From positions 118,274 to 182,273 of the forward strand of contig JBGTEY010000011.1 of NCBI GenBank assembly GCA_041747555.1: DNA of 64,000 nucleotides. The letters are read 5' to 3'. The position numbers and the translations under genes are program-made. This DNA is from Patescibacteria group bacterium (GTDB lineage: Bacteria; Patescibacteriota; Microgenomatia; UBA1400; PJMF01). Of this stretch, positions 6,816-64,000 are shown in pieces (the first letter of the stretch is position 1; every line of letters begins with the position of its first letter). The notes below the pieces were generated by a model, which saw nothing but the letters and a program-made list of their open reading frames with translations, did no database searches and had not been told where the DNA came from.

Positions 6816-8594
6816 ATGCCCAAACTCAGCGTCAAAAAACAATTTCAGAATGCCCACAATCTCCTCAAGGAAATTTTTGGATATAAAGCGTTTCATCCAA
6901 CGCAAGAGACAGCGATTCGCGCAGTTTTAGCAGGAAAAGACGCATTAGTGATCATGCCTACAGGCGGCGGAAAATCAATGTGCTATCAAATTCCAGCGCT
7001 CGTCCTTGGGGGAACGACAATTGTGGTTTCTCCCCTGATCGCACTTATGAAGGATCAGGTCGATGCACTGCGCGCAAATGGGGTCGCTGCGGAATACCTC
7101 AACAGCAGCATTCTCCCCGAACGACAACGTGAAATAATTGCGGACGTACTTGAGGGTACTATCACACTCCTCTATGTCTCAGCAGAACGTCTGATCACGC
7201 CTGATTTTATTAAAATTATCAAAAAAATTCAGCCAAAACTCTTTGCTGTCGATGAAGCGCACTGTATTTCTGCCTGGGGACACGATTTTCGGCCAGATTA
7301 CACCAGACTTTCTCAGATAAAAGCGCTCTTTCCCAAAACGCCAATCATCGCTCTCACCGCCACTGCAGATGAAATAACGCGCAAAGACATAATTTCTCAG
7401 CTAGAACTTACCAATCCTTTAGAATTGATCGATTCTTTTGACCGACCAGGTATTTCACTAACCGTTTTGCCGGGCCAAAAAAGAGTTGAAAAAATAAAAG
7501 AATTTCTCAGTGACAAAGACGGGCAATCAGGAATTATCTACTGTCTGACACGCAAAAAAACAGAAACCATTGCCAAAAAACTACAACAAATTGGCCTCAC
7601 TGCCGCCAGTTACCACGCTGGAATGTCATCATCAGACCGGTCGAAAATTCAAAAAAGCTTTGTGCGCGATAAGACCCAAATTATCTGTGCTACCATTGCT
7701 TTTGGCATGGGTATCGACAAGTCAAATGTGCGCTGGGTGATCCACTACAACCTACCCAAAAACATCGAAGGCTACTACCAAGAAATCGGTAGAGCCGGTA
7801 GAGACTCCGCACCCGCACAAGCCCTCCTCTTTTACACCTACGCTGACGTTGAAATGATTAAGAAATTTTTTATTGACGTTAAGCAGGGTGCACTCCAGCT
7901 CGCAAAACTCGAACGAATGAAAGAGTATGCGGAAGGTGTCATTTGTCGACGCAAGATCTTACTCCAGTATTTTGGCGAAACATACCCAAAAAACTGCGGT
8001 AATTGTGATGTCTGCGAAAACCCCTATCCAACCCGAAATGGCACCAAGATCACCGAAAGCATTCTGTCTCACCTCACAGATATGAGTTCTGGCGATGAAC
8101 CCAACACAATTCAACTTGTTTCGGCCCTCACCCAATCTAGCAGCAAGGTCAGCTTCGCTTCTTGGCATTTTTATCTGGCGCAACTTAAAAATCAGGGAAT
8201 TATCGAAGTCAATTTTGCAAAAAATCAATCATTGGCGGTGACCCAAAAAGGCATAAGTGTGGTCAAAAAGAAAAAACCAGTCAAGTTGGTGCTGCTCGAT
8301 ACTTTTATTGAAAGGCAAGAAAGCGCAGGCAAAGCAAGCAAGAAGCGCTCTAAGAAAAAGCCCAAAAAAGACTATTTCAAAAACCCGCTCTACGAAAAAT
8401 TGCGAGAAACCAGGCTCGAACTTGCCCAGAAAAACTCCCTTGCCGCCTACATGGTCTTTAGTGACGCAACACTGCTCGAAATGGCGCATGAAAAACCAAA
8501 AAATAAACAAGAAATGTTGAATATATCAGGTGTGGGTGAGGTGAAGTGGGAGCGGTACGGTGAAGCTTTTTTAAATGTTATCGCAAAAAACTGA
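6816..8594 (+). CDS. recQ: ATP-dependent DNA helicase RecQ
   Basis: MPTGGGKSMCYQIPAL (Walker A), DEAH box (VDEAHCIS), RecQ zinc-binding Cys cluster, C-terminal HRDC-like region; 592 aa. Confidence 0.9.
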   Translation: MPKLSVKKQFQNAHNLLKEIFGYKAFHPTQETAIRAVLAGKDALVIMPTGGGKSMCYQIPALVLGGTTIVVSPLIALMKDQVDALRANGVAAEYLNSSILPERQREIIADVLEGTITLLYVSAERLITPDFIKIIKKIQPKLFAVDEAHCISAWGHDFRPDYTRLSQIKALFPKTPIIALTATADEITRKDIISQLELTNPLELIDSFDRPGISLTVLPGQKRVEKIKEFLSDKDGQSGIIYCLTRKKTETIAKKLQQIGLTAASYHAGMSSSDRSKIQKSFVRDKTQIICATIAFGMGIDKSNVRWVIHYNLPKNIEGYYQEIGRAGRDSAPAQALLFYTYADVEMIKKFFIDVKQGALQLAKLERMKEYAEGVICRRKILLQYFGETYPKNCGNCDVCENPYPTRNGTKITESILSHLTDMSSGDEPNTIQLVSALTQSSSKVSFASWHFYLAQLKNQGIIEVNFAKNQSLAVTQKGISVVKKKKPVKLVLLDTFIERQESAGKASKKRSKKKPKKDYFKNPLYEKLRETRLELAQKNSLAAYMVFSDATLLEMAHEKPKNKQEMLNISGVGEVKWERYGEAFLNVIAKN

Positions 8595-10890: not shown

Positions 10891-12642
10891 TTACTTGGAT
10901 TCCTCACCCACCGCATATATTATTTCATCCTCAGACTCAAAAACCTCCTCGGCATTTGTTTTCTCCCGCCATTCAGATAGTGTCCCTGATTGCGTTGCCG
11001 TGAGTTTCTCTGTATGAATCCTGAGCAGCTCCACATTTCTTTTTTCTAATAATTCCTGGAATGCCTCAGTGTTGGTTGTGTTCAGACTCTCGTCTACAGA
11101 AATATGATATTCGTTGTACGCATCCGGAGAATACCCGCTGTAGCCATTCACTACATTGCAGTTATGATCTGTGGCATCGATCACAATGCCTGTCCAGTGC
11201 TGGAGCATCATGAAAATTCCTCTGCCGTCGCCATATGGATTGTATAAAATTGGATACTCAAGAAGGACCGAAGCGTCGTCGCAGAGTGGTTTGAGATGGG
11301 TACTGATCGCTCTTTCTGGTGTGGCGGGCTCAAAGGTGCGATTCACGGGGAGTGCTTCTGCAAAATAAACGAGCAACACAAGCCCTATTACTGGTGCGTG
11401 CCATTTTACATCTATTTTTTTCAATACTTTTTTCAGGCCTAGAAGCGCAAAGAAAATCACACCAATAAAAAACAATAATGACCAACGGGATGTTGCACGA
11501 ATCGGCTCAAATATCGGAATAAATTTTAATAAAACTGCATACGGTAACGGCGGACCAATATACACCGAACCTACCCGCAGACGTGGTCCCAGAGAGAAAA
11601 TAAGTCCTGAAATTGCCAGCGCCAGGAAAAATAATGTCGAGCGATTCATTGGCAACCCAATTCCAAACTGCAGTGGTTTTTTCTTCTTGAAAATAACAAA
11701 ATTCCACACCGCCAGCGCACTCAAGATAAATGTTGGGAAAAATCCCCCGGCCGCTGTTGCTAGTAATCGATTCCATCGCTGGAAAAGTGCAGTGTTAGAA
11801 AGCACACTTTGGTAACTCGAGTTTGAAACATAGTCAAAAATACTTGCAGAATAATTCACATACTCACCAAAATCCCGCTTCGCATCATAAAATTGCCGTA
11901 CTGCATAATATTTATACATAAACGGACCTGCCAAAACAGCAACTGTCAGTACAAATATGCTCCCCCACCGCAACCAAGTTTTCCAATTTTTCGCAAAATC
12001 CTCGCGCTCCGCCAAAAGTTGCACCAACGCCCAAATTCCAATACAGTACATCAAGAAAATCGACAAATATACGCTTGAAACAAAGGTCACGCTCGTCCAA
12101 AACCCAAGCCAAAACGGCTGCCACTTCCCCCATTTATTATTGAGTAGGTGCGAAAATCCAAACAAAAATGGCCACAGCGTGATCATTTGGTAATGTGATG
12201 TATTAACAATCACAAACGGCATAAGTGCCGTGACGAATGCTGCCAACGACAGGAGTGGGCCATCCCAAGTTTTCCGCCACAAATGCCAACTGGCGATAAA
12301 ATTAAGCAAGAGCGTTATAAAAAACGTGATATTAAATGCGGTAATTATGTTTGGAATAACCAGGTAGATCGGCAGTGCAATCAACGCGCTGGGCAAAAGC
12401 AAATCGCTAAACAGCAACGTATCCTGGAAAGGATAAAAAATATTTGATTGAAAAAACTGCCCCCAGTTCCCCGCCAAAACATGATCCAAATGCTGATCAA
12501 TAATCCAAACAATCAGCGGATAGTCGTTCCAGTCATACAACTGCGTACTGAGATTAAATAGAATTGGACTGAAGAGATAACCAACAACCAGTGCAAAGAG
12601 TAAAAGTGATCCTGCGAGCCAGAGATTTTTTTTGGTTGGCAT
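10891..12642 (-). CDS. polytopic membrane protein, possible GT-C-type glycosyltransferase
   Basis: 583 aa, >10 predicted TM helices in N-terminal two thirds plus C-terminal soluble domain; architecture typical of GT-C/YfhO-like enzymes. Confidence 0.45.
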   Translation of the reverse strand: MPTKKNLWLAGSLLLFALVVGYLFSPILFNLSTQLYDWNDYPLIVWIIDQHLDHVLAGNWGQFFQSNIFYPFQDTLLFSDLLLPSALIALPIYLVIPNIITAFNITFFITLLLNFIASWHLWRKTWDGPLLSLAAFVTALMPFVIVNTSHYQMITLWPFLFGFSHLLNNKWGKWQPFWLGFWTSVTFVSSVYLSIFLMYCIGIWALVQLLAEREDFAKNWKTWLRWGSIFVLTVAVLAGPFMYKYYAVRQFYDAKRDFGEYVNYSASIFDYVSNSSYQSVLSNTALFQRWNRLLATAAGGFFPTFILSALAVWNFVIFKKKKPLQFGIGLPMNRSTLFFLALAISGLIFSLGPRLRVGSVYIGPPLPYAVLLKFIPIFEPIRATSRWSLLFFIGVIFFALLGLKKVLKKIDVKWHAPVIGLVLLVYFAEALPVNRTFEPATPERAISTHLKPLCDDASVLLEYPILYNPYGDGRGIFMMLQHWTGIVIDATDHNCNVVNGYSGYSPDAYNEYHISVDESLNTTNTEAFQELLEKRNVELLRIHTEKLTATQSGTLSEWREKTNAEEVFESEDEIIYAVGEESK

Positions 12643-17565: not shown

Positions 17566-17830
17566 GATTTGATACCAAAAACTACTTGCAAGAATGTAAA
17601 AACAGATTCATTTGCTGTATTATATGAGATGAATTGTAATTTACTAAGGAAAATATGTTTGAATCTAAAACAGGCCCAACACAAGATGCTCCTCCTCTTA
17701 AAGACAGACTCCTTAGGATTCCCCATATGGGAGAAGTACCTATTGAAAGCAATTCAGCACTCATAAACAGAGCACTCAATCGCATAGATGCGGTAAAGCT
17801 ATTCTCTTTCCCCCACTTAATGGAGACCAA

Positions 17831-18220
17831 TTGAGACAGATTCCCAATATTGCAACGCTGGAGGGTGTATATGCAGACATCTTGTCAGCGTGCCAGAGTG
17901 GATTCTTTGTGGTGGAAAAAGTCAGTACTACAGAGGAAAAAGAAGCTTTGGAACAACTTCAATTGAAAGCAGAATCATTAAAAACAAACACACTCAATTT
18001 GCTGAAAGATTATCTTAAAAGCAAAAAGAAACGGACAAGTAAAGCTGAAAAGCTTCCTGTACAACCACCTGCTGAAATTGATGGGACCGCAGATTGGAAG
18101 CGAGGAATCTCCATTGGGTCTATGATAAACAAAATCAATACTCAAGCACATGAACTTTTTCAGTTCCTTCCAAAAACAGTTATCATGGCACCTGAGCAGC
18201 CAGAAACAACTAATCTCTGA
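17831..18220 (+). CDS. hypothetical protein
   Basis: 129 aa ORF ending exactly at the 3' end of the convergent tRNA-Thr; low-complexity, unsupported by motifs. Confidence 0.3.
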   Translation: MRQIPNIATLEGVYADILSACQSGFFVVEKVSTTEEKEALEQLQLKAESLKTNTLNLLKDYLKSKKKRTSKAEKLPVQPPAEIDGTADWKRGISIGSMINKINTQAHELFQFLPKTVIMAPEQPETTNL

Positions 18221-18293
18221 GCCATCTCGGGGATTCGAACCCCGGACCTCCTGTTTACAAAACAGGCGCTCTAACCAACTGAGCTAAGATGGC
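18220..18293 (-). tRNA. tRNA-Thr (anticodon TGT)
   Basis: Minus-strand cloverleaf GCCATCT..AGATGGC, anticodon loop TTTGTAA, T-arm CGGGGTTCGAATCCCCG. Confidence 0.85.
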
Positions 18294-18327
18294 ATGGACC
18301 ATTTAAGTGGTCGATTCTCTCAAACTG

Positions 18328-18410
18328 TGCCAGGTGAAGGATTCGAACCTACGAAGGCGTAAGCCAGCAGATTTACAGTCTGCCCCCGTTGACCGCTTGG
18401 GTAACCTGGC
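18328..18410 (-). tRNA. tRNA-Tyr (anticodon GTA)
   Basis: Minus-strand cloverleaf GCCAGGT..ACCTGGC, anticodon loop CTGTAAA, long variable arm, T-arm GGTTCGAATCC. Confidence 0.85.
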
Positions 18411-18421
18411 GTGGTGTGGTG

Positions 18422-18552
18422 TGATTGAAATGGCTTTATTAGAGTTGCGCTCAGCAACACTTCGCTTGGGGAATGTCTCTCCTCTTCGCTTCAATATCTT
18501 CTAGTTTTCCTGTCGAGACATTCAACAAACTCTAATAAAACCATTTCAATCA
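18422..18552. repeat. 131-bp element with 25-bp near-perfect terminal inverted repeats (MITE-like or structured RNA)
   Basis: TGATTGAAATGGCTTTATTAGAGTT (18422-18446) vs reverse complement of AACTCTAATAAAACCATTTCAATCA (18528-18552), 24/25 match; nested 9-bp inverted repeat GAATGTCTC/GAGACATTC. Confidence 0.4.
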
Positions 18553-18585
18553 CCGGCGACACAGTATTCGTTTTAAAAGAGCTTG

Positions 18586-18657
18586 AGCCCAGGGAGGGAA
18601 TCGGACCCTCGACCTCCATCTTACCAAGATGGCGTTCTGCCACTGAACTACCTGGGC
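18586..18657 (-). tRNA. tRNA-Thr (anticodon GGT)
   Basis: Minus-strand cloverleaf GCCCAGG..CCTGGGC, anticodon loop TTGGTAA; T-loop TCCGATT slightly atypical. Confidence 0.75.
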
Positions 18658-18995
18658 AGTGGCTGCGTGTTGGCGAATGTGAGGTTGCGCAGCTCGTACC
18701 GTTTGCCACTCAAAAATCACTTCGTTTATTCACGATTAACAAAGCAATAGTATACCATCTGGAAAGAAATAATTGACAGCCAAGTGTGAGAGGCACTCCT
18801 TTCCCCCCGAATATCAGGTGGGTAGGATGTCCGGCACACCACAGTGTGACAGAACGCTCCATTGCCCGTTGGCAAAGTGTTGAGGAAAATGCTGTTACCC
18901 CCCACACTTGACTGTAAATGTTGTGCGTATAGTCAGTATACTATATTTTTTTGTTGAGAATTGTTTGAGAAAATGAGTATTTGTTGAAGCAGTGT

Positions 18996-19889
18996 CTACT
19001 GTCCTAGCTCAGCAACCCATTCCCTAACTTTGTGCCCATACTTCTCATTTCGCATCACAAATTGTAGATGGGCCCTGAAGTAATTTTCTGGGTCGCCGGT
19101 GGTCATCCATTCTCCGCGGGTGCGCTCAACGAGAACTCGGCCGGAGCTCGCGACTTGAGTGATAGCGTCGACCGTCCATAGCTCATTGTCTTTACCTGTG
19201 TTTACGGGGATGAGGTGTTCAAAAATTGATGGTTTCAATAAATATCGACCGTATGATGCCAGATGTGATGGCTCGGTCCCTTTGTCTGGTTTTTCGATAA
19301 TATTTGCCAAATCGGTGTCAGAACCTTCTTTGAAACTAATAATTCCGTATTTATCAACTACATCAGGGCTGACTTCTTGCGCCATGATAATTGCGTCGGC
19401 ATCTCGGTTTTGCATGTAGGTGTCGACCATGCTTCTGGCATCGCCATGCTCACCAAAAACAATATCGTCGCTATACAGGACTAAAAATGCCTCCTCGCCC
19501 TCTACAAATCGCTGCGCGGATGCAACTGGGGAGCCATTTCCATACGGCAAACTTTCATCTTGAGTGATCACGACTATCTTGGGGAAATCTAAAATGTGTT
19601 GAACTGGCTCGTATCGATCTTCTTTACCTTGAGTTGCAAGCTGTTTCCTAATTCTATTGACACTATTATTGAAATAATCTTCGTAAATTGGTTTACCTTC
19701 TGGGGTGGCAACGATGATAATTTCTTGCACTCCCGCCTGAGCACATTCTTCAACGATCAACTGCATAATTGGTCGATTTCCAAATGGCAACATGGCTTTG
19801 GGTACGGTCTTTGTGATCGGCAAATACCGACTGGCAAAACCAGCATCGGTGACAATAGCTTTTCGTACGACTTGTTCGGTTTCAGACAT
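18996..19889 (-). CDS. galU: UTP--glucose-1-phosphate uridylyltransferase
   Basis: KAIVTDAGFASRYLPITKTVPKAMLP nucleotidyltransferase N-terminus (GxGTRxLPxTK), ~298 aa from internal start MSETEQ. Confidence 0.75.
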   Translation of the reverse strand: MSETEQVVRKAIVTDAGFASRYLPITKTVPKAMLPFGNRPIMQLIVEECAQAGVQEIIIVATPEGKPIYEDYFNNSVNRIRKQLATQGKEDRYEPVQHILDFPKIVVITQDESLPYGNGSPVASAQRFVEGEEAFLVLYSDDIVFGEHGDARSMVDTYMQNRDADAIIMAQEVSPDVVDKYGIISFKEGSDTDLANIIEKPDKGTEPSHLASYGRYLLKPSIFEHLIPVNTGKDNELWTVDAITQVASSGRVLVERTRGEWMTTGDPENYFRAHLQFVMRNEKYGHKVREWVAELGQ

Positions 19890-45912: not shown

Positions 45913-45986
45913 CGGAGAGTGGCGCAGATGGCTAGCGCGCTGTGTTCGGAACGCAGAGGTCGCAGGTTCGAGTCCTGTCTCTCCGA
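45913..45986 (+). tRNA. tRNA-Pro (anticodon CGG)
   Basis: CGGAGAG acceptor, D-arm GCGC-AGATGGCTA-GCGC, anticodon loop TTCGGAA, T-arm GCAGGTTCGAGTCCTGT. Confidence 0.85.
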
Positions 45987-45991
45987 CATAT

Positions 45992-46020
45992 AAAAAAGCG
46001 ACCATGAGGTCGTTTTTTTT
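45992..46020. terminator. bidirectional intrinsic terminator
   Basis: AAAAAA-GCGACC-ATGA-GGTCG-TTTTTTTT. Confidence 0.5.
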
Positions 46021-46131
46021 ATATGTTGGAGTGGGCAACGGAATCGGAGCTATTTGGTTCTGCCGCCAAGCGACCGAAACTTATTGCAATGCATGAAAAA
46101 CGAAGCGCGTGGCTAATCCCCGAAGGGGAGC

Positions 46132-46148
46132 GTCCTGTCTCTCCGACA
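46132..46148 (+). repeat. 17-nt direct repeat of tRNA-Pro 3' end
   Basis: GTCCTGTCTCTCCGACA identical to 45972-45988. Confidence 0.5.
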
Positions 46149-59659: not shown

Positions 59660-62600
59660 TTAAGGGGTTGGGGATGGCGAGCTCTGACCCTGATTCAATG
59701 GGGTTGGTACTGGAGACGGCGTAGCTGAACCCCCACTTGAGGGACTTGGTGTTGGAGATGGTTGCGGCGATGCTTCTGGAGATGGGGATGGACTTGGTTC
59801 AACTGATCCGGCGCCTTCAGCACCTTCGCTTGTCTCATCAGTTTCGCCTGCTTCATCTTGATCACCTGCAACTTCACCAGACTCTTCTGGGTCATTGTTT
59901 TCTTCTGGTTGTGGACTCTGACTTGGCTGTGGTGATCCGCCTTCACTCTCGAGAACTTCTACTAAAGCGGCTTCACCACTCGTTGTGAGCACTGCTAACC
60001 AGTTAATTTCAATATCTTGTGCCTGCGCTTGAGTAAGTCTAATGATAAATGATCCAACTTCAACAGATTCTAGGTGGTAACCACCATTGATTGTGCCTCG
60101 AGAACTGAGGTATACAGTTGGGGCGTCCGCATATGCCTTGGCGAAGGTTACTCTCACTTTGGTAGTTCCTGCTGGAATCACCACACTACCTGCTGTATCT
60201 TTATTGACTCGAATACTACCTCTGATGGTGACGTCTGCCAAGAACTCGACACCGCTCTTGAAGACTGCTCGAGTATTAAATACGACCTCTTTGAGGAATG
60301 TCCAGGCAGTGGCTGTTATTGTCGTATGATTATTCAGGTTTGCATTGATTGCCTGGACTTGTGTGTCGATCGCTGCCAATTGAGTCACCGCAAGTTCAGC
60401 TTGTGTTGCCGCATCCTGTGCCAATTGCTGATCAATATTAGATACTCTACCCTGACTATCAAATTGTACTCGATCAGAAAATGTTTTAAATTGTTCATTC
60501 TGCTCTTGCACCGCCCTCACAATCATAGGTGTGACCTTACCGTAATCAACTTTCCAGTGTTCATTTGGATTGTCAAAATAGGCCGTGACCGCGTCTGGGT
60601 ATATTTCATACAACTGTTGAGCAATAAATCCAGTGTGCATTTTGCTTGATCCATCAGCTTTAAAGCTGTAATCCATAACTTGCACCTGGAGCAATTCCTC
60701 AAGACCTTTGCTGCCCATTGAAAAATTTTCCTTTAAACGTAGATCAGAAGAGGTGTTGTATGAAGTCGTACTACTCCCAAACGTGATTGAGCCGACACTT
60801 GTCCCATTGCCATCGTTAAATTGTACGAGTGTTGAGGGGCCTGCAGCTGTATGATCGTCCAATCCAGCTTGAATGGAGATGCCCGATCTATTAGTAGCAT
60901 TCCCATCATTGAAAAATTCTGCAGCATAATCAGTTAAGTTGGCTGAAACTTGAAGTTGACCATTCGTTGCCAAAGTTCCAGAACCCAAAAAGTTAAAATT
61001 TTGATTTAAACTAACATTTCCAAAGTGAAGCGCTTCAGAACCATCGGTTGTCGTAAAGATCATGTACCGACTACCAGATTGAGCAAACTGCAGTGCTGCG
61101 GATTGATTATCTGGAAATCTGATTGTTGTTGCTGAATTTAAATTTATATCACTACCACCTACAACCAAGTCATTCACACGTACATCGCTCTCAAAATATC
61201 CTCCATAATCCCAGTTTGCGCCCTCTTGGTAAATTGCATATTGCGTGCCTGAGACCCCGTTGGTGTCTGTGGCTGGATCATTAATGCGAATTCCATATAG
61301 AGAGTTACCAGTTGATGCAGTGAAATTTGTAAAATCAAGATCAATCAATGTGGTGCTTCCCGTAGAAGTTGTCCCTGTCCCCCAATCTACATTTATAAGC
61401 TCACCAGACGTCCAGCTGGTATTAAGTGCATAATCGGTAAATGTACCAATTGTCCCTGGCGTAATTGTTGTTAACCCTGATAAGGTCAATGTTGTGGAAT
61501 CAACCCCAGCATTTGCATCTAGATTTCCTGTAAATGTCACCTGACCTGATCCTGCTTGTGTAAGTGCTCCAGTGTTAGTGAATGTGAAAAATGGAGTGCC
61601 GTTGTCGGCAATGATGAAGTCGCCTGTGGTTGTGAGATTATATGTTAATCCTGTAGCATTATCGATTTCCATGGTTAAATTAGCCTCAGTGATTGATTGT
61701 GCATACACATCATCAAATGTGGGTGTGCCCGCTACAGTATCTACATACGCTTTAATGCTCTGCTGTGTGGCAAGGGCTGTAGCAGAGTTTGAGACGAGGT
61801 CGTCTTCATCGAGAATTGAACTGACGGCTGTTGAGGCTCCGAGTTGAAGTGAGCCATTGACGAGCAATGCTCCATTTGAGAATGAGAGTAGGTCAGTGTC
61901 TGTGGTAAGCCCAAGAGTCGTGCCATCCAAAAGCAAACTATCTACTGTCCAGCTCGTAAAACCAGTTCCCACACCAGAAGCGTTAATATCCCAACCAGAA
62001 GAGTTTATTGCAATTGCATCTCCGCCATCTCCCAGAGTTACCGTGCCATTTGCGACCAGTGAGCCATTTGCTGTAAGCGTGCTAGCAAAAGTACCCGCAC
62101 CAGCCGTGGTAATTGTTGCATTTCCACCCACGGTGAGTGATGATCCTGTGACATCGAGGCCGCTTGTTACATCCACATTGCCGGTGAGGGTTACTTGACC
62201 AGCTCCAGCTTGAGTAAGTGCTCCAGTGTCAGTGAATGTGAAAAATGGCGTGCCGTTATCTGCAATGATGAAGTCGCCGGTTGTTGTTAGGTCAAAGGTC
62301 AACCCACCCGCATTATCAATTTCCATGTTGAGATCAGCTTCAGTAATAGATTCGGCATACACTTGATCAAATGTTGGAGTTGAGGTGCTTATTTGATTAT
62401 CAACATAGGCCTTTATGCTCTGCTGTGTCGCCAACGCTGTTGCTGAATTTGAAGTGAAGCTATCTTCATCAAGAATTGAACTAACCGTTCCTCCAGAAGT
62501 AAGAGTGAGCGTGGAAGCAGTAATATCTCCTTCAACCGATAAGTTAGCTTGGTATGTTGAATTTGAATTAATAATGGTGTACGTACTATCCGCACCAGCA

Positions 62601-64000
62601 TCAAGCAGGTTCCAATAGACAGAGTTGTCTCCAGAAATCGCGCCAGAGCTCACAATTTCGAGGCGATCATCGGTGCTCTCATCATAAAGGACACTCCAGT
62701 TTGCATCATTTCCAAAAGCAAATCCTACGTTATCCTGCACTTCCCAAGCTCCAGAAATAGCCTGTGCATCTGAGTCAAAAATTAACGCCTCTATTGTATT
62801 CTCGGTCGTCGCATCTGTAGATGCTAAACCGTTTAATGCTCCTCCTGTAAGCGAAGTAGTGCCGTCAGTGAGGGTACCGCCAGTGATGATACTTGAAGCG
62901 TTCAGGGTTGTTACGTCAGAAATTGCTCCTGCATTTATATCAATTCCGTTGATCGTTTCATCTGTATGAGCGGTAATTACACCGCCAGTTGAAAATGAGT
63001 AACTCCCGCCAACAGTCAAGTTTGCATTGGTAACATCAAGTCCATTGCTCGCATCTACATTGCCTGAGAGCGTTACCTGACCTGCTCCTGCCTGCGTGAG
63101 TGCGCCACCATCGGTGAAGGTAAAGAAGGTAGTGCCGTTGTCGGCAATGACGAAATCACCAGTGCTGGTCAAGTCTACAACCAGGTTGCCAGTTAGTGCA
63201 TTAGTTATTGTCGTTGCTGCGTCAAGTGTTAGGGCATCTGCGAGTTCAGTAAAATTCAAAGAGTCTGCAATGACATTGTAGGTAAGTGTGTCAGTTGCAG
63301 AAACGGTTGCGTTAATAGTTGATGAATCTGCGGCGCTGAGAGTATTGGTTGAGCTGATAGTTTGTGAGGTGACGCCGTCAGAAATTACCCAGTTTGAATA
63401 TCCGCCGGCTCCAGCATCAGCATCAATCCATGCTAAGACTCCAGCCGAGTTTGTAGATAAAATTTGATTTGCGCTCCCATCGGCAACGGGAAGTGTATAA
63501 ATAACGTCTCCTGCGAGTGTATCTGGAGCTTTAAATCCAGTATAGTTGTCTCCCCCAGCCTCAAGCTCCTGGAAACGAATTTCACCAGTATTACCAGCGG
63601 CAATACCAAATGGATTAATGTTAAATGCTGACGCAGACACGTCAAAGTAAAATGGTGAGTCGCTCGTGGTATTACCAACAGCAAGGTCGTCTGAGGTGGC
63701 AGTTAAGTAGGTAATTGCACCATTATCTGTCCATTTTGAAGAACCAGAACCACCAGAAGTTACCCAGCCGCAAGTTGGTTGTGTAGGATCACAGAGGAGA
63801 TCGTTACCCCAATACAAACTATCGCCCGCTTCTCCTGCTGCAGCTGCGCCATACGAAAGTACATTGTCTGGATCTGCGTCATTGTTGAGACCAAGGGTGG
63901 TGCCTTGCACCGCAACTGCCCCCGAGAATGTAGTGAGCGCTGCATTAATATCGATATCATCGCTGGCAAAATCGATGCTTGGATCCGTTACTCCGACATC
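59660..64000 (-). CDS. giant repetitive surface/fibre protein with Peptidase-S74-like intramolecular chaperone domain; 5' end beyond window
   Basis: >1440 aa; Thr/Gly/Asn-rich beta-rich repeats (three copies of TTTGDFIIADNGTPFFTFT...QAGAGQVTLTGNVD), SDLRLKENF...GFIAQQLYEIYPDAV S74-type motif, Pro/Ser/Glu-rich C-terminal tail; frame remains open to nt 64000. Confidence 0.7.
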   Translation of the reverse strand, partial: DVGVTDPSIDFASDDIDINAALTTFSGAVAVQGTTLGLNNDADPDNVLSYGAAAAGEAGDSLYWGNDLLCDPTQPTCGWVTSGGSGSSKWTDNGAITYLTATSDDLAVGNTTSDSPFYFDVSASAFNINPFGIAAGNTGEIRFQELEAGGDNYTGFKAPDTLAGDVIYTLPVADGSANQILSTNSAGVLAWIDADAGAGGYSNWVISDGVTSQTISSTNTLSAADSSTINATVSATDTLTYNVIADSLNFTELADALTLDAATTITNALTGNLVVDLTSTGDFVIADNGTTFFTFTDGGALTQAGAGQVTLSGNVDASNGLDVTNANLTVGGSYSFSTGGVITAHTDETINGIDINAGAISDVTTLNASSIITGGTLTDGTTSLTGGALNGLASTDATTENTIEALIFDSDAQAISGAWEVQDNVGFAFGNDANWSVLYDESTDDRLEIVSSGAISGDNSVYWNLLDAGADSTYTIINSNSTYQANLSVEGDITASTLTLTSGGTVSSILDEDSFTSNSATALATQQSIKAYVDNQISTSTPTFDQVYAESITEADLNMEIDNAGGLTFDLTTTGDFIIADNGTPFFTFTDTGALTQAGAGQVTLTGNVDVTSGLDVTGSSLTVGGNATITTAGAGTFASTLTANGSLVANGTVTLGDGGDAIAINSSGWDINASGVGTGFTSWTVDSLLLDGTTLGLTTDTDLLSFSNGALLVNGSLQLGASTAVSSILDEDDLVSNSATALATQQSIKAYVDTVAGTPTFDDVYAQSITEANLTMEIDNATGLTYNLTTTGDFIIADNGTPFFTFTNTGALTQAGSGQVTFTGNLDANAGVDSTTLTLSGLTTITPGTIGTFTDYALNTSWTSGELINVDWGTGTTSTGSTTLIDLDFTNFTASTGNSLYGIRINDPATDTNGVSGTQYAIYQEGANWDYGGYFESDVRVNDLVVGGSDINLNSATTIRFPDNQSAALQFAQSGSRYMIFTTTDGSEALHFGNVSLNQNFNFLGSGTLATNGQLQVSANLTDYAAEFFNDGNATNRSGISIQAGLDDHTAAGPSTLVQFNDGNGTSVGSITFGSSTTSYNTSSDLRLKENFSMGSKGLEELLQVQVMDYSFKADGSSKMHTGFIAQQLYEIYPDAVTAYFDNPNEHWKVDYGKVTPMIVRAVQEQNEQFKTFSDRVQFDSQGRVSNIDQQLAQDAATQAELAVTQLAAIDTQVQAINANLNNHTTITATAWTFLKEVVFNTRAVFKSGVEFLADVTIRGSIRVNKDTAGSVVIPAGTTKVRVTFAKAYADAPTVYLSSRGTINGGYHLESVEVGSFIIRLTQAQAQDIEINWLAVLTTSGEAALVEVLESEGGSPQPSQSPQPEENNDPEESGEVAGDQDEAGETDETSEGAEGAGSVEPSPSPSPEASPQPSPTPSPSSGGSATPSPVPTPLNQGQSSPSPTP

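Follow-up and report, generated by a model that had tools for sequence, protein, structure and literature searches.

A putative lineage-specific palindromic insertion in the tRNA-Thr–tRNA-Tyr spacer of a Patescibacteria genome

The spacer between tRNA-Thr(GGT) and tRNA-Tyr(GTA) of a Patescibacteria group bacterium contains a 133-bp palindromic, hairpin-forming element (18421..18553, minus strand) that is missing from the orthologous spacers of its relatives. All coordinates refer to the window, that is, the whole stretch of 64,000 nt of contig JBGTEY010000011.1 that was analyzed. We read this element as a single-copy, lineage-specific orphan palindromic insertion of ~150 bp, with the 133-bp hairpin as its core, that would be co-transcribed with the tRNAs, probably cut by RNase III and discarded during processing, and we give this reading a probability of about one half. 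Most likely it is a harmless insertion, neither a conserved RNA gene nor a member of a demonstrable transposon family.

Structure and stability of the palindrome

The element was delimited with an inverted-repeat finder and by folding. Its outer arms, GTGATTGAAATGGCTTTATTAGAGTT (18421..18446) and AACTCTAATAAAACCATTTCAATCAC (18528..18553), are 26 nt long, complementary at 25 of 26 positions (96%) and separated by 81 nt; in the tRNA-sense RNA, the first of them becomes the 3' side of the stem. The terminal repeats start with TGATTGAAATGG, and the tips of the element read TG...CA. At the only mismatched position of the outer arms, the minus (tRNA-sense) strand has a G.U wobble and the plus strand a C.A mismatch. 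Inside the outer repeat lie two inner arms, GAATGTCTC (18471..18479) and GAGACATTC (18515..18523), paired at 9/9 positions, which extend to 18466-18479 (with two mismatches) and 18515-18528, respectively, giving 14 nt at 86%. They enclose a 35-nt terminal loop (18480..18514, minus strand) that is purine-rich on the tRNA-sense strand. The first-pass annotation of this DNA had described a 131-bp element with 25-bp terminal inverted repeats; the element is real, and each arm proved to be one base longer, while the enclosed 9-bp inverted repeat and the 35-nt loop agree with both our reading of the sequence and the repeat finder. The outer repeat is the longest and best inverted repeat of the 64-kb window.

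Folding of the 174-nt spacer gives -56.3 kcal/mol for the tRNA-sense strand (z = -5.9), a value equaled by none of 200 shuffled sequences, and -57.1 kcal/mol for its complement (z = -6.2). The sense-strand fold includes 26 consecutive pairs, counting the G.U, and the hairpin stem is kept when the entire tRNA operon is folded. The element has no coding capacity, every frame being short or broken, and a search with its translated frame returned no candidate among 5.8 billion proteins. Its arms carry an SD-like GGTGA followed by ATG on both strands, a by-product of the palindrome. A small peptide or type I toxin was rejected, as the two frames of 17 and 24 aa are not hydrophobic and their start sites are buried in the stem.

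The sequence of the element is matched base for base in a separately built Logan contig, L034 (run SRR28170463), which argues against an artefact of one assembler, though the underlying reads may coincide. This contig and a second one from the same run (L033) both stop inside tRNA-Tyr (18367-18374), a few bases apart and not at the hairpin, which suggests branching of the assembly graph on tRNA sequence common to other members of the community.

Position in the tRNA operon

The best matches of the proteins encoded around the element come from MAGs labelled Microgenomates, Woesebacteria or Pacebacteria, and the G+C content of the window is 40-49%. Read along the minus strand, the region comprises a galU-like NTP-transferase gene (18996-19889), a structured RNA of ~140 nt, an extended -10-like motif, tRNA-Thr(GGT) (18585..18657), which is the upstream gene of the operon, the hairpin, tRNA-Tyr(GTA) (18327..18410), immediately downstream of the element, and tRNA-Thr(TGT) (18219..18293), the last of the cluster. 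The three tRNA genes, all on the minus strand, were identified with both ARAGORN and Rfam, which bears out the placement of the element between tRNA-Thr(GGT) and tRNA-Tyr in the first-pass annotation; it lies within the 174-nt spacer at 18411..18584 (minus strand). The same annotation had noted that no tRNA fold is present in the element, and ARAGORN and the Rfam tRNA model are indeed silent there. Its remark that the element occupies the slot of tRNA-Gly in E. coli-type operons turned out to be unhelpful: the cluster of this clade has the order Thr(GGT)-Tyr-Thr(TGT), and at this place all the relatives have no more than a short spacer. We thus discarded a tRNA, a pseudo-tRNA or a "missing tRNA-Gly", as the spacer gives no ARAGORN or Rfam tRNA match and the relatives have no tRNA there. 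An 11-nt similarity of the spacer to the D-arm region of tRNA-Tyr does not extend further and was treated as chance.

The -10-like motif, TGGTATACT (18749..18757, minus strand), is located upstream of tRNA-Thr(GGT) and is kept in three of the related loci (L035, L050 and L046); it was found by direct reading and is not listed by the consensus scan. We infer that it is the promoter of the operon, which would place the element inside the primary transcript. Neither a promoter nor a terminator was detected in or beside the element, by the consensus scan of 17800-19300 or by reading, and no U-run follows the stem on either strand, the 3' flank being ACCACACCAC on the sense strand and CGGCGACACAG on the other. 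A reading of the element as a terminator or an internal promoter was therefore rejected, the consensus scan being empty and the U-tract missing. With no promoter or terminator at the hairpin and no flanking U-run, the hairpin would be transcribed within the tRNA precursor.

Orthologous loci in related genomes

The spacer was compared with eight orthologous loci representing six related Microgenomates lineages. Synteny is kept across the clade, with a gene for a 442-aa protein, L33, the tRNA cluster and the NTP-transferase, then SecE-NusG-L11-L1. The Thr(GGT)-Tyr spacer, 174 nt in the source genome, measures 21 nt in both L035 (Logan SRR28060985) and L050 (NCBI GCA_049289655.1, Microgenomates group bacterium), 26 nt in L046 (Logan SRR29476927), 35 nt in L038 (NCBI GCA_900089805.1), 45 nt in L048 (Logan SRR28413672), 71 nt in L051 and L052 (NCBI GCA_018062735.1 and GCA_020050275.1) and 88 nt in L039 (NCBI GCA_020632265.1). 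A hairpin or any sequence similarity to the element is absent from the spacers of all eight loci, where structure is weak or lacking and never significant.

L035 and L050 represent one sister lineage of the same genus, sampled twice, and share 84-89% nucleotide identity with the window over the region; their tRNA-Thr(GGT) is identical to that of the window and their tRNA-Tyr differs from it by 1 base. With near-identical tRNAs on either side, their 21-nt spacer shows the orthologous site of a close relative to be empty. The window spacer can be aligned with that of L035 over no more than its first ~15 nt; ~150 nt, comprising the hairpin and its flanks (5', ~17 nt; 3', ~10 nt), have no counterpart. 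From this comparison, the element is best described as a lineage-specific insertion or expansion of ~150 bp in a spacer that is already prone to indels.

The Thr-Tyr-Thr cluster as a whole is visibly an insertion hot spot in the clade, as judged from the loci compared. In the sister lineage, a PemK toxin-antitoxin cassette separates tRNA-Thr(TGT) from tRNA-Tyr (2849-3480 in L035, 5035-5666 in L050); in the window, two small extra ORFs lie between MscL and tRNA-Thr(TGT) (17569-18220), and L046 has an extra ORF of 220 aa after the NTP-transferase (1985-2647). Kinship of the element to the PemK cassette of L035 was considered and dismissed, since the only match, 12 nt at the start of the first gene of the cassette, looks like chance.

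Other features of the window

The ~140-nt structured RNA (~18776-18915, minus strand), located between the galU-like gene and the promoter of the tRNA operon, is conserved, with orthologues in L038 (12045-12201), L039 (~12185-12350), L048 (~8112-8275) and L046 (~2720-2885). It is closed by a stem of ~20 bp, and compensatory changes were found in 16 of its 47 predicted pairs (five sequences), together with the invariant motifs UUUCCUnAAC and YUACCCACCUG. The window copy has no Rfam match; the L038 copy gives a weak full-length match to the 6S model on the correct strand (model positions 1-187), which at 17 bits and E = 0.12 is below threshold. This RNA is likely a divergent 6S RNA of Microgenomates, one that escapes current models, and it is probably a more useful lead than the hairpin for the annotation of CPR genomes.

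Two further repeats were observed in the window. The 3' end of tRNA-Pro(CGG) recurs at a distance of 160 bp on its downstream side (45961-45988 and 46121-46148, 82% identity over 28 nt), an arrangement that resembles the att-site duplication left by integration at a tRNA; a hairpin of 17 bp made of A/T runs (45981-46031), which looks like a bidirectional terminator, overlaps the 3' end of the tRNA. An ORF of 1416 aa (59660-63910) contains three tandem copies at 61499-63169 that have diverged to 74-79% identity (period ~650-880 nt), and its product appears to be a large repeat-domain protein.

Possible origins of the insertion

The form of the element had led to the proposal that a miniature inverted-repeat transposable element (MITE) had inserted into the tRNA operon. 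The insertion itself is supported by the hairpin-free spacers of 21-88 nt in the relatives; the hallmarks of a MITE (further copies, a target-site duplication, a transposase or a homologue) were not found. A genuine MITE would be non-autonomous and derived from an insertion sequence; it would have reached the spacer by transposition and be present in further copies in this or related genomes. Such an origin would account for the form of the element (26-bp terminal inverted repeats, 133 bp, non-coding, TG...CA tips), for its presence or absence between the source genome and the sister lineage and for its location in a neighbourhood that gathers inserted DNA, but we consider it rather unlikely in view of the search for copies that the first-pass annotation had called for, which gave a single copy in the 64-kb window and none in ~100 kb of the relatives' loci or in the searchable collections. 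When the arm 25-mer was sought with up to 3 mismatches, the two arms were the sole matches in the window (0 expected from 100 shuffles), which covers ~6% of the roughly 1-Mb genome; a blastn-short search of the window after masking returned nothing. No direct repeat of 2-10 nt is present at the 25- or 26-nt boundary, the tRNA-sense flanks being GTCGCCG and ACCACACC, and no transposase or integrase domain was detected among the 30 window ORFs scanned. An element with both arms is absent from 596 Gb of GTDB representative genomes, where a scan with an arm 19-mer returned 32 matches, every one a single arm in an unrelated taxon; we rejected them all as homologues, as they are chance matches or coding sequence. 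There was likewise no match in IMG/VR, PLSDB or phage records.

A scan of JGI metagenomes, which required both 12-nt termini 90-120 nt apart, yielded five loci with matching termini, all dissimilar inside. Two of them (L041 and L044) are the same coding palindrome, and L042 and L043 are unrelated. The remaining locus, L045 (JGI contig Ga0172368_10024836, 216-345), is a 130-nt hairpin with 17-bp arms, whose outer 14 nt (TGATTGAAATGGTT) equal the tips of the window element. It sits between a partial tRNA and a permuted tmRNA, on a contig where 14 tRNA genes are packed into 4.7 kb, perhaps a phage tRNA array, and has no internal similarity to the element; from this comparison, we judge the shared tips to be a coincidence. 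Logan contig L034, which crosses the element without interruption, also speaks against further near-identical copies in the sample. A Logan assembly is constructed so that no 31-mer occurs twice (PMC12424806); had the sample contained the element a second time in near-identical form, the contig would have ended at its edges. Both the exact-pattern scans and the 31-mer argument address near-identical copies, and diverged ones would escape them. With neither a target-site duplication nor a second copy, transposition is an analogy only, and a template switch or foldback during replication would look the same; on its sequence, the element is MITE-like in form and we do not file it as a MITE. An integron attC site and a retron msr-msd were also rejected, as the ends do not carry the R''/R' boxes and the neighbourhood contains neither an integrase nor a reverse transcriptase.

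The lack of a target-site duplication and the single copy would fit another origin, in which the 133-bp unit was not transposed and the palindrome either arose de novo by a replication error (template switch or foldback inverted duplication) or is the scar of a deleted cassette. The new DNA exceeds the hairpin, since its flanks (~17 nt at 5', ~10 nt at 3') are likewise missing from the spacer of the sister lineage; the variation of the relatives' spacers from 21 to 88 nt indicates that indels are frequent, and cassettes come and go in the tRNA cluster. We nevertheless regard this origin as unlikely, as no donor sequence for either arm was found in the window or in the relatives, and as one side of the interior is longer than the other by 24 nt, an asymmetry that a simple foldback copy does not predict.

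Fate and possible role of the hairpin

The first-pass annotation had offered a second reading, that of a highly structured processed spacer or ncRNA co-transcribed with the tRNAs. Its two halves fared differently: a conserved ncRNA finds neither an Rfam match nor conservation, and a co-transcribed structured spacer is the most likely physical fate of the element. The covariance scan that it had suggested gave no Rfam 15 match at the gathering threshold, and the sole match at E<=10 is to a plant miRNA-precursor model, with 21.9 bits against a threshold of 120, a chance hairpin. As identities for the element, 6S, SRP, ribozymes, riboswitches and T-box were discarded, with no match even at E<=10.

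A functional, lineage-specific structured RNA, acting as an RNase III module that uncouples tRNA-Thr(GGT) from tRNA-Tyr and tRNA-Thr(TGT) or released as a small RNA, would be consistent with a very stable hairpin on the transcribed strand within a stable-RNA operon, and with the only arm mismatch being a G.U wobble on that strand. The arms are also kept better than neutral drift implies for an old insert, the leader being ~86% identical to that of the sister, and there are precedents in the small RNAs and RNase III sites of the phage T4 tRNA cluster and in the rRNA intervening sequences excised by RNase III. We find such a function decidedly unlikely. The hairpin is conserved in none of the six related lineages (0/6), which leaves no alignment for covariation; the plus strand folds as well as the transcribed one (-57.1 vs -56.3 kcal/mol), as a DNA palindrome would, unlike a selected RNA; Rfam is silent; and the relatives process the same three tRNAs without the hairpin. 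In a fast-evolving spacer, the near-perfect pairing (25/26 in the outer arms and 9/9 in the inner stem) could mean that the element inserted recently or that pairing is under selection. A weak hint of selection, and hence of function, comes from the G.U on the sense strand, but a recent origin would explain both its placement and the preservation of the arms equally well. We hold it to be improbable that the hairpin was recently acquired as a functional module for the processing of pre-tRNA, serving as an entry site for RNase III or giving rise to a hairpin-derived small RNA.

For the preferred reading, a palindromic insertion that is probably neutral, the following course can be proposed. The promoter upstream of tRNA-Thr(GGT) would drive the cluster, making the element part of the precursor, and the element, having no U-tract and no promoter of its own, would neither end nor start transcription. 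In RNA it is predicted to fold into a mostly paired hairpin of ~40 bp, which would be thrown away as RNase P and RNase Z trim the tRNAs. RNase III could plausibly cut the 26-bp duplex and split the precursor there. This step is suggested because the enzyme cleaves dsRNA of about 20 bp or more and because Correia elements and rRNA intervening sequences provide precedents; the modeled stem offers uninterrupted dsRNA of at least ~20 bp within a predicted stable-RNA precursor. No RNase III domain was found among the 30 window ORFs scanned. The insert would be tolerated because the RNA of the spacer is discarded, and its net effect on the cell is probably neutral. Its origin would be mobile DNA or a replication error.

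Significance

By itself, the element matters little, and its kind, a MITE-like or foldback palindrome in a tRNA spacer, is ordinary. More broadly, it documents the spacers of Microgenomates tRNA operons as soft spots where foreign or palindromic DNA is taken up, and a MITE-like shape by itself is no ground for annotating a MITE or an ncRNA. If other copies exist, the element would join the small number of MITE families described from CPR genomes; the literature on such families was searched and no paper was found. If the hairpin directs RNase III processing, it would bear on tRNA maturation in reduced genomes, and if it were a functional module, a reduced genome, possibly with a reduced RNase repertoire, would be recruiting selfish palindromes for the maturation of its stable RNAs.

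Comparison with known systems

Bacterial MITEs include the Correia (NEMIS) elements of Neisseria, RUP, ERIC/IRU and Nezha, which occur in tens to hundreds of copies per genome and have a family consensus and a defined target-site duplication. In Correia elements this duplication is TA, and their transcripts are substrates of RNase III. By description, the element resembles them in being 100-160 bp long, non-coding and intergenic, in having terminal inverted repeats of ~26 bp, in forming a long hairpin when co-transcribed and in being present or absent between close relatives. It differs from them in having one copy, no duplication and no homologue in the collections searched.

Intrinsic terminators and attenuators are likewise stable stem-loops inside a transcription unit, but, unlike terminators, the element has no U-tract, and its stem is much longer and more AU-rich than is typical of them. 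Structured non-tRNA sequences are found in other tRNA operons, as with the species 1 and 2 RNAs of phage T4 and the tyrT-distal rtT repeats of E. coli, which are conserved in their phage or species group and accumulate as RNAs. The element is similar to these by description, with predicted co-transcription and release by processing, but it is not conserved. The intervening sequences of rRNA interrupt mature rRNA helices and are removed by RNase III without harm. Like them, by description, the element is a sporadic, lineage-specific extended hairpin of 100-200 nt, of obscure origin, in a stable-RNA operon; unlike them, it lies in an inter-tRNA spacer that would be discarded anyway, so that no special excision would be needed.
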